From Candidatus Uhrbacteria bacterium (GTDB lineage Bacteria > Patescibacteriota > Patescibacteriia > UBA9934 > GWF2-40-263): a stretch of DNA of 64,000 nucleotides. The stretch lies in assembly GCA_016844925.1 (NCBI GenBank), contig JAERTI010000055.1, positions 1,459 through 65,458 on the forward strand, read 5' to 3'. Numbering within the stretch: position 1 is the stretch's first letter; every line of letters starts with the position of its first letter. Both the position numbers and the translations under genes were made by a program. This document shows, one piece after another, positions 1 to 36,216 of the stretch. The notes under the pieces were generated by a model. That model was not told the DNA's origin, made no database searches, and saw only the letters and a program-made list of their open reading frames with translations.

Positions 1-1758
1 GAGTAAGAACGTGAAACTTAGTGACCCCGTCTGACCCGGCTCCACAGAGAGAAACCCTCCAAACGATGTCAGCCCAAGCTCCCCGACAACATCTGTCTCA
101 ACACTTGCTTGAAGAAGTTCAGAACCCTCTGGGACATACACCCGTGTATAGGTGCGGTAGCGCGTGGTCTTGTAATCAAATGTACCTGTGTGATTGTAAG
201 TGACAACAACTTCCCCCATCCACTGACCGAGGCTGTTGCGACTAATGTCATAAGCAATCGCTCTCTCGACAACAGGATCTGTTTTGAGCGCGGCAAGGTT
301 CGCATCCACTACCATAAGGGTATCCACCTCCCCTGGCTCTATAGCGCCACCCCAACCAACACGCTCAATCATCTCCTGTACTTGCTCATCCGTCGAAAAG
401 AGAAGAAGCTGCTTGGCATCAAGCGCTTCACGCGCGTAGACGAACACCGTCTCCCACTCAGCATAAGAAAGCTGGTACAGACGTGACTTCATCTCATCAA
501 TCAAATCAGCGAGAATCTCTTTTCGTTGCGATACGGGAATCCCCTCCGCCTTAAATCCAAACTGAACTTGATACTCCAGAGCATCGGCAACATTCTCTGC
601 CGTGAACGTCTGTCCACCAACGTCAATTGACCCGGTGACCTCTAACAACTTTGATGCAAAGGTCGGCGTGAGAGCTATCACATGATCGATCTGATCTGTG
701 TGTGGAACACTCGAACCCTCCTCAAGGTAGCTTGCCTCCTGCAAAAACAGCTCTATTCCCTTTTGTGTAGAGATAGCGAAGTCTGGCGACCAATTGCTAT
801 CTCTGAAAAACCACTGCGTTGCAGCATTGTAGTCCTTAAGGGGTGCTGGCGGTTCAGCGACCACCTGTTCTGCCACCGCATTATCAAGCGTGTAGACATC
901 AGCCGTCTCCATGTGCTCGATGTCACCACCGTCAACCTCAAGAACTCCATAGGACCCGATAAACCCACCCCCCGGACGGATCTCGTCATTGTTTAAAAAC
1001 AGGAGGAGGTTTGTTGACGACTCCTGCAGTCCCGCATAGGCCGGCAGTAGACGCGCCCCGATCGAAAGAAGATCCAGCTGCTCTTCCAACAGAGATAGCT
1101 GCTCACGCACAGGATCAAGCATGCTCACGATGGGATCGAGAGCCGTTGCTCCAGCAAGTAGATCAATCTCTTCTTGAGCAATGCTGATCTGCGCAATCAA
1201 CAAATCGATTTCATCCGCAGATGCCGCAAGGCGTGCAAGCACGGCGCGCTTGGTCTCAGTTGAGAGGTCGTCAAACGTCACCTCTGGCGACAATCCACTC
1301 TGCACACTGTCGAGATACTCTTGTGAAATCCCTGCAAGCTGCATCATGTCTTGCCCAAGATCAAAAAGTGGATCAAGCGCAACGGCAATAGCAGAGCTTG
1401 TCTGGATCAACTCCGAGATAGAGGCCACATAGGTACCAACGCGCGGTATCCAAGCAACGGTCACCAGGATGGGTAATCGTCTCTCAGCCATGCTCAGATT
1501 CTCTTGAGCGCCTGAGAGTGTCTCCCGAGCACGCTCAAAAGAAAAAGCCTGTGCCTCATCCTTGGCAACAAGCAACTGATCACGAGCGTCAGACACATGA
1601 GCAAATACCTGACTCGTCACGACAACGAGGCAGACCGTCCATGCAAGAACCAAAATCAATGTGGATACAAAAAGTGTTCGCAGGATGCGCCTACGCTTGT
1701 GCTGCCTCTGCTGCGCTTTAGGCTCGGCTCGATGGAGAAAATTGAGGCTGTGACTCAT
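1..1758 (-). CDS. DUF4012 domain-containing membrane-anchored protein (3' end runs off window start)
   Basis: Not in the ORF track because no stop lies in the window. Manual translation from ATG 1758: MSHSLNFLHRAEPK...RRILRTLFVSTLILVLAWTVCLVVV (TM)...LLLFLNNDEIRPGGGFIGSYG, the NNxExRPxGGFIGS motif of DUF4012. ATGA overlap with the upstream GT stop. Confidence 0.8.
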   Translation of the reverse strand, partial: MSHSLNFLHRAEPKAQQRQHKRRRILRTLFVSTLILVLAWTVCLVVVTSQVFAHVSDARDQLLVAKDEAQAFSFERARETLSGAQENLSMAERRLPILVTVAWIPRVGTYVASISELIQTSSAIAVALDPLFDLGQDMMQLAGISQEYLDSVQSGLSPEVTFDDLSTETKRAVLARLAASADEIDLLIAQISIAQEEIDLLAGATALDPIVSMLDPVREQLSLLEEQLDLLSIGARLLPAYAGLQESSTNLLLFLNNDEIRPGGGFIGSYGVLEVDGGDIEHMETADVYTLDNAVAEQVVAEPPAPLKDYNAATQWFFRDSNWSPDFAISTQKGIELFLQEASYLEEGSSVPHTDQIDHVIALTPTFASKLLEVTGSIDVGGQTFTAENVADALEYQVQFGFKAEGIPVSQRKEILADLIDEMKSRLYQLSYAEWETVFVYAREALDAKQLLLFSTDEQVQEMIERVGWGGAIEPGEVDTLMVVDANLAALKTDPVVERAIAYDISRNSLGQWMGEVVVTYNHTGTFDYKTTRYRTYTRVYVPEGSELLQASVETDVVGELGLTSFGGFLSVEPGQTGSLSFTFLL

Positions 1759-32803: not shown

Positions 32804-32859
32804 ACGCCCCGCCTAAGGCCTAAAACCAAAGGCGGATTTTTGTTATCCACACCCAACCC

Positions 32860-32905
32860 TTGCGTTCGGTTTTTGTTCGGTGCACAATGCGAACAGAAAG
32901 CGAAC
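32860..32905 (+). promoter_or_regulatory. lexA promoter with two oppositely oriented direct-repeat LexA boxes
   Basis: TTGCGT-N17-CACAAT; GTTC-N7-GTTC (32864-32878) and GAAC-N7-GAAC (32891-32905); DnaA-type box TTATCCACA at 32843-32851. Confidence 0.75.
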
Positions 32906-32914
32906 AGCAAATCT

Positions 32915-33529
32915 ATGTCCAATCTCACAAAGAAACAATCAGAAGTGCTCAAGATCATTCGCCAGCACCTCGACACCGAAGGCTACGCCCCTTCGTACCG
33001 AGAGATCGCCGATGCTCTCGGCCTCTCCTCCCCCTCCACCATCCACGCGCATGTTCAAGCACTCGTGGAGAAAGGCCTGATCGCCACCGGTGAGGATGGT
33101 CGCGCACGCTCCATCGAGCTCGTCGACGAATCTCCTAAGGGACCTTCCGTCATGCTACCGCTTATGGGCATCATCACCGCTGGTCAACCTATTGAGGCTG
33201 TGGAGGACAATGAAGCCATGGCCGTGCCAGCAGACTTTGTCCTGGACGGCTCCAACTCATTCGTCCTGCGGGTAAAGGGCCGCTCCATGATTGAAGACGG
33301 CATCCTTGATGGAGACTTCGTCGTCATCGAGCGCAACCCTTCACCACGCAACGGTGAAGTCGTCGTCGCGCTGATGGACAATGCTTTTGCCACACTGAAA
33401 CGATTTTACCGAGAAAGAAACCGTATCAGACTTCAACCCGCAAACAGCACCATGGAACCAATCTACGTCCAAGATTGCATCATCCAAGGCGTTGTCCGAG
33501 CTGTCATACGAAAATTCCAACCAGTGTAG
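32915..33529 (+). CDS. lexA: SOS repressor LexA
   Basis: LTKKQ, PSYREIA, ITAG cleavage site, VKGRSM catalytic Ser, ATLKRF, LQPAN. Confidence 0.95.
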   Translation: MSNLTKKQSEVLKIIRQHLDTEGYAPSYREIADALGLSSPSTIHAHVQALVEKGLIATGEDGRARSIELVDESPKGPSVMLPLMGIITAGQPIEAVEDNEAMAVPADFVLDGSNSFVLRVKGRSMIEDGILDGDFVVIERNPSPRNGEVVVALMDNAFATLKRFYRERNRIRLQPANSTMEPIYVQDCIIQGVVRAVIRKFQPV

Positions 33530-33534
33530 TGAGA

Positions 33535-34006
33535 CGTTTGGCCTGATTCGATAGCGAAGGGATCACGCAATCGAATCAACACAAACGAAAAAGCGCTCCG
33601 TCCGGCAAGACATTGAAGCGCTTCTCAGGAACTACCTAGTTACGCCACGGGACGATTCCCGCGCGTATGGCAGCTTTTGAATTGTAAACACAGGAGGGCT
33701 TGGAGAGCAAATGTCGGGATGCTCTCTAGGCCTAACCTCATCTAGTCCGGAGGTTCCGCTGCAAGGCTGGGGACAGGAAAGACCACACTCTGCTGGGTGC
33801 CAGAGTCGTCACGTCCGAGATCCTCTTTGCGGCCGAACCTTCGTCCTAGACGACGATGATCCCTTAATTCACAAAAAATATAGACTGTTTCAAAAATCGA
33901 TGAGATTGCCTTGAATGGGCTGCCAACCCTGAAGATGTACTAACAGGTACATTGAAGGGATGGCTGGGCGCCCATGAAAGGCAAGATCGCTATTTTTGGA
34001 AGAGTC
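33535..34006 (+). ncRNA. Candidate ~470-nt highly structured RNA within the SOS operon
   Basis: Six consecutive stem-loops, two of them >100-nt rods; G-U pairs on + strand; no credible ORF. Confidence 0.6.
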
Positions 34007-34010
34007 ATCC

Positions 34011-34199
34011 ATGCTTATGTCTTCTGCAGCTTTACGCCACACGGCCATCACCCTCTCGTTCCTTCCCTACAAACGGGACCGTCGTCTTACAAAAAACATA
34101 CGTTCCCTCCGTCTCCGTGCCTCTCGCCGGCGTGCGAAGCAGGCCATGCGTCACGTTCTTACTCGCATGAAAACCGCTGGCTATGCACGAACTTCTTAA
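34011..34199 (+). CDS. Small highly basic protein
   Basis: RRLTKNIRSLRLRASRRRAK; overlaps next gene; start 34011 or TATG 34017. Confidence 0.45.
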   Translation: MLMSSAALRHTAITLSFLPYKRDRRLTKNIRSLRLRASRRRAKQAMRHVLTRMKTAGYARTS

Positions 34200-34431
34200 T
34201 GACCCTGTGGACGTGATGGTCTCATTTGCAGACAATCGCGTCCTTCCACGCACCATGCGCTGGAATCAGAAAGACTACAAGATCGAGAACATTAACCTGG
34301 TTCACACCGTCCGTGAGGGTCGTAAGAAAGTCTTCTACTTCTCTGTCTCAGACCTCAACAACTATTTCAAACTCAAACTTGATCCAGAGAATCTCGATTG
34401 GAGACTGGTGGAGTTGTATACGGATGGATAA
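34183..34431 (+). CDS. Small SOS-cassette protein (DUF6504-like beta protein)
   Basis: P..MRWNQKDYKI....H..REG....YFSV......F.L..D....W.L pattern typical of CPR lexA-dinB loci. Confidence 0.7.
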   Translation: MHELLNDPVDVMVSFADNRVLPRTMRWNQKDYKIENINLVHTVREGRKKVFYFSVSDLNNYFKLKLDPENLDWRLVELYTDG

Positions 34432-34433
34432 GA

Positions 34434-34454
34434 AAAAAGCATCCGTAGATGCTA
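34434..34454 (-). terminator. Intrinsic terminator of the GNAT cassette
   Basis: Minus: AGCATC-TACG-GATGCT-TTTTTC (cUACGg tetraloop). Confidence 0.75.
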
Positions 34455-34931
34455 GTGATGGAGCCGAAGCTCGAAGTGTCGATCTGAGCCGTCGACTAGC
34501 GTGAAGCCGAGCTTCTGGTAGAGAGACCGTGCGGCTTCGTGCCAGGGCTCGCTTACGAGCCTGATGACCGCAAGCCGTGGCCGAACCTCACGGGCTTGCG
34601 CCAGCAAGTCCTCCATGACCACACGCCCAAGGCCGCAGCCTCGGAAGTCGGTGTCGACCAGAACGTACTCAACGCTGCCGACACCCTTGCGCCAGTCGTA
34701 ACTCACCATGAGCAGGGCCACCGCGACCATCTGGCGGGTCTCTCGCTCACGAATGATCGAGATGCGTGTCCGCGTGCGGTCCATGAGCCTGGCCTGGAAC
34801 AATGCGTCGCGATACTCCAGATCTCCAGAGCGAAGCAGATCCTGCCCACGTTCGTTCAGAAACGTCAGGCAATCTCGGTAGTCTTCCAGCCGAGCGGCTG
34901 CGATTCTGAAACGATCATCGTCAAAGGGCAT
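34452..34931 (-). CDS. GNAT acetyltransferase (cassette inserted antisense in SOS operon)
   Basis: VLVDTDFRGCGLGR, AARSLYQKLGF; perfect SD TAAGGAGGTG before ATG 34931. Confidence 0.85.
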   Translation of the reverse strand: MPFDDDRFRIAAARLEDYRDCLTFLNERGQDLLRSGDLEYRDALFQARLMDRTRTRISIIRERETRQMVAVALLMVSYDWRKGVGSVEYVLVDTDFRGCGLGRVVMEDLLAQAREVRPRLAVIRLVSEPWHEAARSLYQKLGFTLVDGSDRHFELRLHH

Positions 34932-34983
34932 GATCACCTCCTTAGAAAAGACCCTACCAGACCCTCATGACCCGTCAATCACC

Positions 34984-36216
34984 ATGAACCGCATCATCCT
35001 CCATATCGATTTTAATTCTTACTTCGCCTCTGTTGAACAGCAGGCGAATCCTTTTTTACGGGGAAAGCCCATCGGCATCACGGGCAAGCAAGTAGAGCGT
35101 TCTGTCATTACGACGGCGTCGATTGAAGCCAAAGCTCTCGGGGTAAAAACCGCCATGAGCACCTGGGAGGCAAAGAAGATTTGCCCCTCCCTCATGCTCT
35201 GGCCCGGGGACCCAAAAAAATACGCCGCCATCACAGAACGTTTCAATTGCATCCTTAAGGAGTTTAGCCCCAACGTCTCTCAGTTCAGCGTGGACGAAAG
35301 TTTTTTAGATATTACAAACGAGGCTGAAGACTATTTTGGCGCCACCTGCCTTGCGCAGGCTCTACGTAAGCGACTCCAAGAAGAGTGCGGTGAACACATC
35401 ACCGCTTCCATTGGCATTGCTCCAAACAAGCTCATGGCAAAACTTGCCTGTGAATCCGTGAAACCAAACGGACTCACCGTTGTGCGCTCAGAGGATCTCA
35501 TTTCTTTTATCGACACAAGACCACTTCCCGCACTCTGCGGCATCGGCAGGCGCATCGAGGCTCGCTTAAACGCCTTGGGCATCGAGACGTTCAAACAACT
35601 TCGTGAGTTCCCTCTGGAGGACCTGCAAACTGAGTTCAATAGCTACGGCACCTGGCTCCACGAAGCCGCCCATGGCCGCGACTCATCGGCTGTTGTCTCC
35701 TCAACCCAAAAAGGCATTCGCAACATGCACTCTGAAGATGTGAAGTCGTACGGCCACTCGTACACCCTCCCCCAAGACACCTACGACCCCCTCGTTCTCA
35801 AACGTTACCTTCTGGGTCTAGCGGACAAAGTTGCCTGGCGCATGAGACGTGACGGTATTGTCTCTCGCCGTGTGAGTGCCTTTGTACGCTTCGGTGATTT
35901 CTCAAGCCACGGCGAACAACGAACCTTTCACGCCCCTACCGCCAACGGACTCAAACTTTTTCAAATCGCCTGGAACATTATCCAGCCCCACCTTGGGTAC
36001 ACTCCCGTCAGACTTGTCGGTCTCTCCGCCTCACAGCTCACGCAAGGCCCCGAACAACCACCTCTATTTAAAAAAGACCGAAAGATCCTTTCCGTCTTCT
36101 CTTCTCTTGATACCCTCCAGCACCGCTACGGCTCCGGCGTCTGGCAACGCGCCTCAACCCTCTCCGCAAAGTTCAAAACTCGCTCCAGCGGGTTTCACTA
36201 TGATCATGAAGTCTAA
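34984..36216 (+). CDS. dinB: DNA polymerase IV (Y family)
   Basis: ILHIDFNSYFASVEQ, SVDESFLD, SIGIAPNKLMAKLA, KPNG, KSYGHSYTL. Confidence 0.93.
   Translation: MNRIILHIDFNSYFASVEQQANPFLRGKPIGITGKQVERSVITTASIEAKALGVKTAMSTWEAKKICPSLMLWPGDPKKYAAITERFNCILKEFSPNVSQFSVDESFLDITNEAEDYFGATCLAQALRKRLQEECGEHITASIGIAPNKLMAKLACESVKPNGLTVVRSEDLISFIDTRPLPALCGIGRRIEARLNALGIETFKQLREFPLEDLQTEFNSYGTWLHEAAHGRDSSAVVSSTQKGIRNMHSEDVKSYGHSYTLPQDTYDPLVLKRYLLGLADKVAWRMRRDGIVSRRVSAFVRFGDFSSHGEQRTFHAPTANGLKLFQIAWNIIQPHLGYTPVRLVGLSASQLTQGPEQPPLFKKDRKILSVFSSLDTLQHRYGSGVWQRASTLSAKFKTRSSGFHYDHEV

Follow-up and report, generated by a model that had tools for sequence, protein, structure and literature searches.

Some structured RNAs act in cis from within a polycistronic transcription unit. 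Among those for antitermination or attenuation are EAR (Bacillus eps operon), put (phage HK022) and the nut boxB of phage lambda, with its Arg-rich N protein, which stand at or before a terminator-like hairpin. Riboswitches and other leader attenuators combine a conserved structured domain with a following stem and U tract, upstream of the regulated genes. OLE, GOLLD, ROOL, HEARO and raiA, which are believed to be among the Rfam families, exceed 300 nt, have several covarying stems and occur in a narrow phylogenetic range. To our knowledge, large, well-covarying bacterial RNAs outside Rfam are uncommon, and almost none are known from the candidate phyla radiation (CPR); our literature search for such RNAs from the CPR turned up none either.

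We analysed a stretch of 64,000 nucleotides (the window) from a Candidatus Uhrbacteria genome, in which lexA and a small Arg-rich gene, pep62, are separated by a spacer of 481 nt (Table 1). A first-pass annotation had read this spacer as one RNA of ~470 nt with six stems. All six stems (H1 to H6) do lie where that annotation saw them. The single RNA was not borne out, since H6 is a separate mobile hairpin repeat that is absent in a sister strain. The spacer holds two separate things, namely a conserved RNA element of ~330 nt, H1-H5, and the unrelated mobile hairpin H6.

The H1-H5 core appears to represent a new RNA family, of a kind that is known in general terms. Searching the whole 64-kb window with Rfam 15 (4227 models) gave no match at the gathering thresholds, and in E-value mode the region 33300-34500 gave only four weak matches, with 15-17 bits against thresholds of 45-65. 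The element is thus in no Rfam family. As the first inspection had indicated, it is also distinct from tmRNA and RNase P RNA, both of which were found at other places in the genome (C35:81107-81499, 117 bits, and C41:62209-62634, 152 bits, respectively). The 6S model found nothing anywhere in the genome, so that only its shape and the lack of an Rfam match speak against 6S RNA. No description of the element was found in the literature; the study of Sanchez-Osuna, Barbe & Erill (2017) may cover the LexA box and regulon of Patescibacteria.

In its probable way of working, the element most resembles the operon-internal attenuation and antitermination RNAs, and it is a member of none of them. Like EAR, put and boxB, it lies within a transcription unit of several genes, at or before a terminator-like hairpin. 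The tops of H1 and H2 are invariant, that of H2 (GUC/GAC, CGGCAA) could be GNRA-like as in boxB, and the Arg-rich pep62, encoded just downstream, is reminiscent of N. However, the long forms of the element are far larger than these RNAs, it has no match in Rfam, pep62 is conserved even without it, and it belongs to a chromosomal SOS operon of a CPR bacterium rather than to a phage or an exopolysaccharide operon. With riboswitches and leader attenuators it has in common a conserved structured domain followed by a stem and U tract, but it lies between genes and not at the 5' end of the operon, and its conserved nucleotides are found mostly in apical loops instead of junctions. No ligand was suggested by the gene context, and no alternative antiterminator or mutually exclusive pairing was seen by eye. 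The size, the several covarying stems and the narrow distribution are reminiscent of OLE, GOLLD, ROOL, HEARO and raiA; the element differs from them in its fixed position in one operon and in its short forms of ~100-150 nt. The 6C RNA of Corynebacterium (PMC5014011) is likewise a structured RNA tied to the DNA-damage response. 6C is an independent actinobacterial gene with its own promoter, whereas the present element is intercistronic in the lexA operon and bears no similarity to it.

Gene order and promoter of the lexA operon

The genome to which the window belongs (G000; G-numbers denote genomes of the order) comprises 1.57 Mb in 56 contigs, whereas its relatives have ~1 Mb, and two different 16S 3' ends are present in the assembly. 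Because of the two 16S ends and the larger size, the assembly may be mixed; despite this, synteny gives good support for the lexA operon itself. This DNA occurs in marine or seawater samples, and among the eight sequencing runs listed for it there is no RNA run. All compared genomes are MAGs of related species, and the genome counts given below are therefore not independent.

The order lexA-pep62-p82-dinB was conserved across the order. Around 20 p82 loci, lexA was found upstream in all 20, pep62 in 14 (tblastn) and dinB in 17. G022 keeps lexA, the RNA element and pep62, without p82 and dinB. In most relatives dinB directly follows p82, and the antisense GNAT acetyltransferase gene that stands between them in G000 is absent; it is also present in G001, G005 and G067. 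Because this gene intervenes, dinB may not be reached by the lexA transcript in G000. The distance from the lexA stop to pep62 ranged from 30 to 556 nt among the relatives, and the long spacer is therefore not ancestral.

The Arg-rich ORF noted at the end of the spacer is real and conserved, with the correction that its conserved start is ATG 34017 and not 34011. The pep62 sequences were aligned in 24 genomes and carry an SRRRxKQ motif, and p82 was found in 25 of 41 relatives, with an AlphaFold pLDDT of 94.9. Neither protein belongs to a Pfam or NCBIfam family, and fold searches with p82 gave no clear match (best Foldseek E 0.16; best VIA-align Z 5.9 over 54 residues).

The motifs upstream of lexA are arranged in a layout that is kept in most of the 24 relatives compared. 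From their position and conservation, they probably constitute the promoter and the LexA operators. A single strict double LexA box, CGAACA-N5-CGAACA, was found in the whole 1.57-Mb genome, at the lexA promoter, and the spacer between lexA and pep62 contains no LexA box in any of the 24 genomes. Matches to GAAC-N7-GAAC lie further downstream in seven of the 24 and were read as within coding sequence, five of them inside dinB, one about at pep62 (G059) and one further on (G062). The organism seems to have a single LexA-controlled promoter. There was no sign of a promoter belonging to the RNA element. The tail of H3 was considered as a promoter for pep62 and rejected, since a correctly spaced -10 is absent and the short forms are too tight for one. 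Since there is a single LexA-box promoter and neither a box nor promoter room in the spacer, pep62 and p82 (and dinB in most relatives) are most likely expressed from transcripts that have passed through the RNA element. The initial claim of a structured, strand-specific non-coding element inside a LexA-controlled gene cluster was upheld in this analysis, and the element lies on the only path from the lexA promoter to pep62 and p82 and, in most relatives, to dinB.

Table 1. Features of the lexA operon and its spacer, in positions of the window
Feature	Position	Strand	Description
lexA promoter region	32843..32905	+	Candidate promoter and LexA operators, from position and conservation
DnaA-box-like motif	32843..32851	+	TTATCCACA; in the lexA promoter region
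-35-like motif	32860..32865	+	TTGCGT; in the lexA promoter region
GTTC-N7-GTTC box	32864..32878	+	In the lexA promoter region
-10-like motif	32883..32888	+	CACAAT; in the lexA promoter region; TAYAAT-like in relatives
GAAC-N7-GAAC box	32891..32905	+	In the lexA promoter region
lexA	32915..33529	+	204 aa; Pfam LexA_DNA_bind 2.7e-21, Peptidase_S24 8.7e-30
H1-H5 + 3' box element	33534..33866	+	~330 nt, single-copy, between lexA and pep62
H1	33535..33587	+	Two-tier hairpin; conserved apical loop AAGGGAUCA at 33557-33565
H2	33591..33623	+	Hairpin; stem sequence free to vary; conserved top CGUCCGGCAAGACA at 33599-33612
H3	33625..33689	+	Three-tier stem (33625-33680) and conserved tail; terminator-like
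H4	33692..33738	+	14-bp hairpin with outer GGA/UCC clamp
H5	33741..33850	+	110-nt rod; conserved blocks GCUGCAAG, CUGGGUG, UUGCGGCCGAACC
3' box	33857..33865	+	UGAUCCCUU; complementary to the H1 loop at all 9 nt; a long-range pairing is predicted
H6	33879..34006	+	One copy of a dispersed hairpin repeat (MITE/REPIN-like); outside the conserved RNA
pep62	34017..34199	+	Small conserved protein rich in Arg; 60 aa when counted from the conserved AUG; alternative AUG 34011
p82	34183..34431	+	Conserved 82-aa all-beta protein; start overlaps the end of pep62
GNAT acetyltransferase gene	34452..34937	-	Antisense, between p82 and dinB; Pfam Acetyltransf_1 1.9e-11
dinB	34984..36216	+	Y-family DNA polymerase IV; Pfam IMS 2e-41, IMS_C 7.1e-21

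Structure and conservation of the H1-H5 element

The spacer (33530-34010, 481 nt) was more stable than shuffled sequence on the + strand, as had been expected, with -195.3 against -143.2 ± 6.1 kcal/mol (z -8.55, none of 100 shuffles as good); the - strand gave a z of -6.88. A large share of the whole-spacer value comes from H6, which alone has a z of -9.85 and an energy of -62.9 kcal/mol on the + strand vs -45.7 kcal/mol on the - strand. The core (33534-33870) had a z of -4.38, and among its stems H1, H4 and H5 showed z-scores of -6.13, -4.89 and -3.41, respectively. For H2 (z -1.46) and H3 (z -1.90), 14 and 6 of 200 shuffles, respectively, were as good; neither stem was thermodynamically unusual, and their support is therefore comparative.

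The top of H2 forms a 3-bp GUC/GAC mini-stem with a CGGCAA loop. H3 is present as first described, except that it is larger, with a stem of three tiers and a conserved U-rich tail. At its foot, the A-rich 5' side pairs with a UUUU tract, and the tail GGCRGCUUUUGAAUUGUAA comes next. Among the 22 matches of the covariance models described below, GGGAUC of the H1 loop was found in 13, the H2 loop was exact in 13 and near-exact in 16, and the H3 tail was visible in all 22 (18 by regex). The H2-top 12-mer is unique in the G000 genome. A simpler form of the H3 tail also exists in genomes without the rest of the element. A hairpin at the position of H4 appeared in nine separately folded genomes (G001, G005, G021, G024, G012, G010, G062, G067 and G068), and its arm sequences differ.

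The element is modular. The long forms (G000, G001, G005, G062, G067, G068, G012 and G021) add H4 and the 110-nt rod H5, the short forms (G070, G069, G019, G059 and G042) end at the tail, 14-35 nt before the pep62 AUG, and some genera keep only H1-H3 or only H3 with the tail. The 3' box was present, exact or in wobble form, in six of the eight long forms. In G067, G062, G068 and G012 an exact GAUCCC stands downstream of the H1 loop and precedes the pep62 AUG by 27-47 nt; the box of G005 reads GGUCCC, which is wobble-compatible. The H1-only variant of G006 has GAUCCC 14 nt before the AUG. In G000 the distance is 159 nt, the box having been pushed away by the H6 insertion; in the strain without H6 it is ~25-30 nt, as read from contigs. 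Neither G001 nor G021 has the box, nor does any short form. Both the GAUCCC box and the H1 loop are invariant, so that they offer no covariation test of the predicted pairing.

Other readings of these sequences were discarded. A pairing of the conserved H2 top with H3, proposed by MAFFT and RNAalifold on the raw H1-H4 alignment, was contradicted by G012 and dropped. The UUG-UAA of the tail, taken as a start-stop mini-ORF, is not conserved. A coding reading also failed, because a 67-aa ORF on the + strand and three ORFs on the - strand are not conserved as ORFs; the apparent matches of the 39-aa ORF on the - strand are the antisense of the lexA 3' end.

We searched related genomes by BLAST and with covariance models. 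When the spacer was compared with 41 related genomes by BLAST, its H1-H3 part matched only the syntenic place by p82. Model R1 was built from G000 alone and comprised H1-H3 and the tail (33534-33689). It matched 16 of the family's 73 genomes, each exactly once, representing 9 of 29 genera, and with filters off it also found G021. All 17 matches of this stage lie between lexA and pep62/p82 on the same strand as lexA. Model R2, built from 15 matches, found 21 of the 151 genomes of the order, again with one match per genome and in 14 genera. All belong to one family, f1 (20 of 65 genomes), and there was no match in the 85 genomes of other families. The seven further loci from R2 all stand directly after lexA on its strand, and pep62 comes next after the element wherever the downstream gene was recognised. 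A metagenome scan for the 14-nt H2 top returned at least 118 stretches, and 0 of 80 examined matched R2 at E<=0.001; these loci are thus chance matches and not new members.

H1-H5 is kept by covariation as a structured RNA motif in one family of Uhrbacteria-type bacteria. The alignments (A4 and A8) were fitted to the model, so that pair counts lean towards structure; across 22 sequences, 88.7% of the pair cells formed standard pairs, compared with 63.2 ± 1.1% in 500 shuffles and 31-43% when the partner was slid by 1-3 columns. Changes on both sides occurred in 43 of 49 pairs, none of the 500 shuffles reached any of five covariation measures, and 15 sequences gave the same result. The covariation that the first-pass annotation had proposed to look for downstream of lexA in relatives is thus strong and above that of shuffles. 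All 18 pairs of H1 (helices 1-3) showed double changes across the 22 sequences, as did the eight outer pairs of H2, and H3 corresponds to helices 6-11 of the 22-sequence model, in which the A tract pairs with the U tract. Three checks outside the fitted alignments agree with the structure, namely single-sequence folding, H5 and the sister-strain comparison given below. Sequences folded singly produced the same H1, H2, H3 and H4. For H5, a MAFFT alignment of six genomes analysed with RNAalifold yielded 29 pairs, 17 of them with compensatory change. The excess of G-U over A-C pairs in H1-H3 was modest (38 vs 22), in an alignment fitted to the + strand model.

A sister strain (~93% identical), represented by contigs of runs X3 and X6 from one study, provided a comparison at short range. 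The changes 33594 C>U and 33620 G>A turn a C-G pair of H2 into U-A, and each arm of H2 gains 2 nt, read as complementary. Changes at 33582 and 33630 give G-U pairs, and the other listed changes, including all three substitutions in H5, fall at predicted unpaired positions. H4-H5 differed at 4 of 135 positions between the strains, against ~40 of 607 in the lexA coding sequence.

H6, a dispersed hairpin repeat

H6 is a dispersed hairpin repeat with presence/absence polymorphism, separate from H1-H5. A MITE match, which the first-pass annotation had named as a refutation, applies to H6, which is a repeat copy, and not to H1-H5, which is single-copy. In BLAST searches, the H6 part of the spacer (query 353-477) had 15 matches in G006, 6 in G017, 5 in G005, 4 in G024 and 4 in G031, none of them at the lexA locus of these relatives. 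A profile of H6 detected six copies in G000 at E<1e-3 and nine at E<=1, and all eight G000 copies of the family that were folded formed long hairpins of the same build. Analysis of 15 copies with MAFFT and RNAalifold gave 45 pairs, 28 of them compensatory, with conserved internal loops GAUGAGAU / AGAUCGC and, by tally, ~49 G-U vs ~5 A-C pairs. The copies abut gene ends, and their orientation to the neighbouring ORFs is mixed, as judged roughly from stop-to-stop ORFs.

The contigs of the sister strain cover lexA and the spacer as far as H5, have 143 additional letters separating H4 from H5, and join 33875 to 34011 with 7 other letters. They skip 33876-34010, and this strain is therefore without H6. 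We saw no clear target-site duplication at the junction between G000 and the sister strain.

H6 shares with hairpin MITEs and REPINs the long hairpin of ~125 nt in many dispersed intergenic copies, the compensatory changes, the presence or absence between strains and the placement against gene ends. It is unlike them in its strong strand asymmetry, its conserved internal loops and the lack of a clear target-site duplication. Splitting off H6 matters because mobile hairpin repeats here can imitate or extend real RNA structures.

Possible roles of the element in the SOS operon

We tentatively favour, at a probability of roughly 0.45, the reading that H1-H5 acts in cis and determines what share of the lexA transcript is extended into pep62-p82(-dinB) or serves for their translation. 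In this model, most lexA transcripts would end at H3, a leaky intrinsic terminator, i.e. an attenuator, made up of the A-tract, the stem and the UUUUGAAUUG tail. Read-through or stability would be tuned by way of H1 and H2, whose invariant loops would serve for recognition. The long forms would in addition give the downstream message a folded leader before the pep62 start, built from H4, H5 and the pairing of GAUCCC with the H1 loop. In a one-operon SOS system, repressor and effector levels would thereby become uncoupled, so that a genome with a single SOS promoter could keep LexA supplied and the effectors low.

The statement that the region lacks a U-tract terminator held in one respect and not in another. 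A simple terminator scan does not call H3, whose U tract has only 4 U, whose stem is bulged and whose top is long. However, H3 is followed by CUUUUGAAUUG, like the ordinary terminator tails of this genome; its tail GGCAGCUUUUGAAUUG resembles genuine ones such as GGCGGUUUUUUGAUUG, of which it is a weaker version. G017, which has an H1-only variant, carries GGGGUUUUAGUUUG after this hairpin. An attenuator mechanism is nonetheless incomplete, because a plain terminator needs no invariant loops of 9 and 14 nt.

A more elaborate version, which we regard as doubtful, would make the element a regulatory RNA of a new class and the decision point of the one-operon SOS system. It could cause antitermination in response to a ligand or a peptide, in the latter case with pep62 recognising the boxB-like H2 top in the manner of lambda N, or else be a true riboswitch. 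The effectors and the error-prone polymerase would then be released only under sustained damage, and LexA would be made constitutively from the same promoter. Binding of the RNA by pep62, an early suggestion, may occur. It is weakened by the observation that conservation of pep62 is equal in genomes without H2 or without the whole RNA, which argues against an obligate peptide-RNA pair.

Among the alternatives to regulated read-through, an RNA processing or stability module survives best, although we consider it improbable. An endonuclease would cut within the tail, leaving H1-H3 as a shield on the 3' end of the lexA message and H4-H5 in the same role on the 5' end of the pep62-p82 message, and the two halves would acquire different half-lives. 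Processing within operons is an established means of expressing their genes at different levels. No single-stranded stretch is better kept than the AU-rich tail, which has stable stems on both sides, and the long forms add 5' hairpins to the downstream message, all of which would suit such a module. However, it leaves the invariant loops of H1 and H2 unexplained, and the short forms would have no protection of the downstream 5' end.

Somewhat less probable still is a stable non-coding RNA cut from the SOS transcript that would work in trans or provide a protein partner with a scaffold or decoy; as such partners, pep62, p82, RNA polymerase and the ribosome are candidates. The size, the multi-stem build and the invariant apical loops are typical of protein- or RNA-recognition sites, and an Arg-rich peptide is always encoded next to the element. 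Furthermore, the H1 loop shares the 7-mer GGAUCAC with the 16S rRNA 3' end, the 16S tail being UGGAUCACCUCC in the G000 assembly. The genome, however, contains no exact complement of the H2 loop (12-mer) elsewhere. The 9-mers of the H1 loop occur 9-10 times in it, about as expected, and a search for other hairpins with a GGAUCA loop gave 131 matches, nearly all inside long ORFs and without signal. The element is also strictly tied to one operon position, as cis elements are, it lacks any sign of its own promoter, and its proposed partner pep62 is just as conserved in genomes without H2 or without the whole element.

It is very unlikely that H1-H5 is a pile of mobile or palindromic insertions next to an ordinary terminator, i.e. 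decayed repeats like H6 that have no function as a unit. The spacer is indeed an insertion hot spot, with H6, the 143-nt insertion of the sister strain, extra hairpins in G010 and G005 and a widely varying length. However, H1-H5 is single-copy in every genome, it keeps its syntenic place in at least 14 genera, where the loops are invariant and the stems change in a compensatory way, and H4-H5 is more conserved than lexA between strains. A structure of single-stranded DNA rather than RNA, such as a recombination, replication or transposition site, is the least likely reading: covariation alone cannot tell the two apart and the - strand also folds well, but the orientation is fixed with the operon in 24 of 24 loci examined, G-U outnumber A-C pairs, and no recombinase or replication gene lies in the neighbourhood.

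At 150-330 nt, and existing naturally in short and long forms, the element lends itself to termination, probing and peptide-binding assays, for which cultivation of the organism is not needed. With a single LexA-controlled promoter, every SOS effector would be expressed through this RNA. If read-through is tuned, a minimal genome would thereby separate the supply of the repressor from that of the mutagenic polymerase without a second operator.

Hairpin insertions between lexA and pep62

Long perfect palindromes of their own were found in the lexA-pep62 spacers of other genomes, either inside the conserved RNA element or after it, and the coordinates of two of them, from the related genomes G010 and G005, are listed in the table. 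Hairpin elements have repeatedly landed in this spacer.

In the sister strain (~93% identical; sequencing runs X3 and X6), 143 extra letters lay between H4 and H5 of the element, at window positions 33731-33741.

Coordinates of features around lexA and dinB
Feature	Position	Strand	Remark
DnaA-box-like site, TTATCCACA	window 32843-32851		perfect; same place in relatives
Presumed LexA operators	window 32860-32905		direct repeats GTTC-N7-GTTC and GAAC-N7-GAAC, either side of the -10
pep62	window 34017-34199		very basic conserved protein of 50-60 aa; 3' of lexA across the order
p82	window 34183-34431		conserved 82-aa protein; flanked in most relatives by pep62 and dinB
GNAT acetyltransferase gene	window 34452-34937	-	antisense; inserted between p82 and dinB
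G010 palindrome	L040 spacer 201-335		inserted between H1 and H2
G005 palindrome	L030/L052, about 90 nt ahead of pep62		insertion before pep62

The genes of the lexA-dinB region

The pep62 proteins shared the consensus MSTxTLRY..TLSFLP.RRDR....R.LRIR.SRRR.KQ and matched no Pfam or NCBIfam family. The start context of pep62 was YUAUGUCY, with no Shine-Dalgarno sequence ahead of the gene. For p82, an all-beta meander of eight strands was predicted with confidence (pLDDT 94.9), and searches of solved structures returned no clear relative (best Foldseek E 0.16; best VIA-align Z 5.9). The direct linkage of p82 to dinB, otherwise kept, is interrupted by the GNAT gene in only four genomes, namely the window's own assembly (G000) and the related G001, G005 and G067. 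The GNAT gene carried a perfect extended Shine-Dalgarno sequence. The lexA gene of another relative, G026 (L046 457-1139), was recovered by tblastn as two pieces separated by a gap of about 95 nt, which could reflect an insertion or a frameshift within lexA.

Presumed operators and a DnaA-box-like site ahead of lexA

The presumed LexA operators are, we assume, similar to the alphaproteobacterial box type. The strict double box occurred a single time in the 1.57-Mb assembly, which suggests that the SOS regulon consists of one operon. This assembly exceeds those of its relatives in size by about one half and contains two different 16S rRNA 3' ends, at C30:~239 and C43:~172819 (minus strand); the bin may be mixed. 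The DnaA-box-like site was located roughly 10-35 bp 5' of the lexA -35 in the window and its relatives. In our own tally over the upstream sequences as printed, the site was exact in 18 of the 24 genomes and one base off in 1 more. Its conservation upstream of the -35 hints at a link between DnaA and lexA, the SOS repressor gene.
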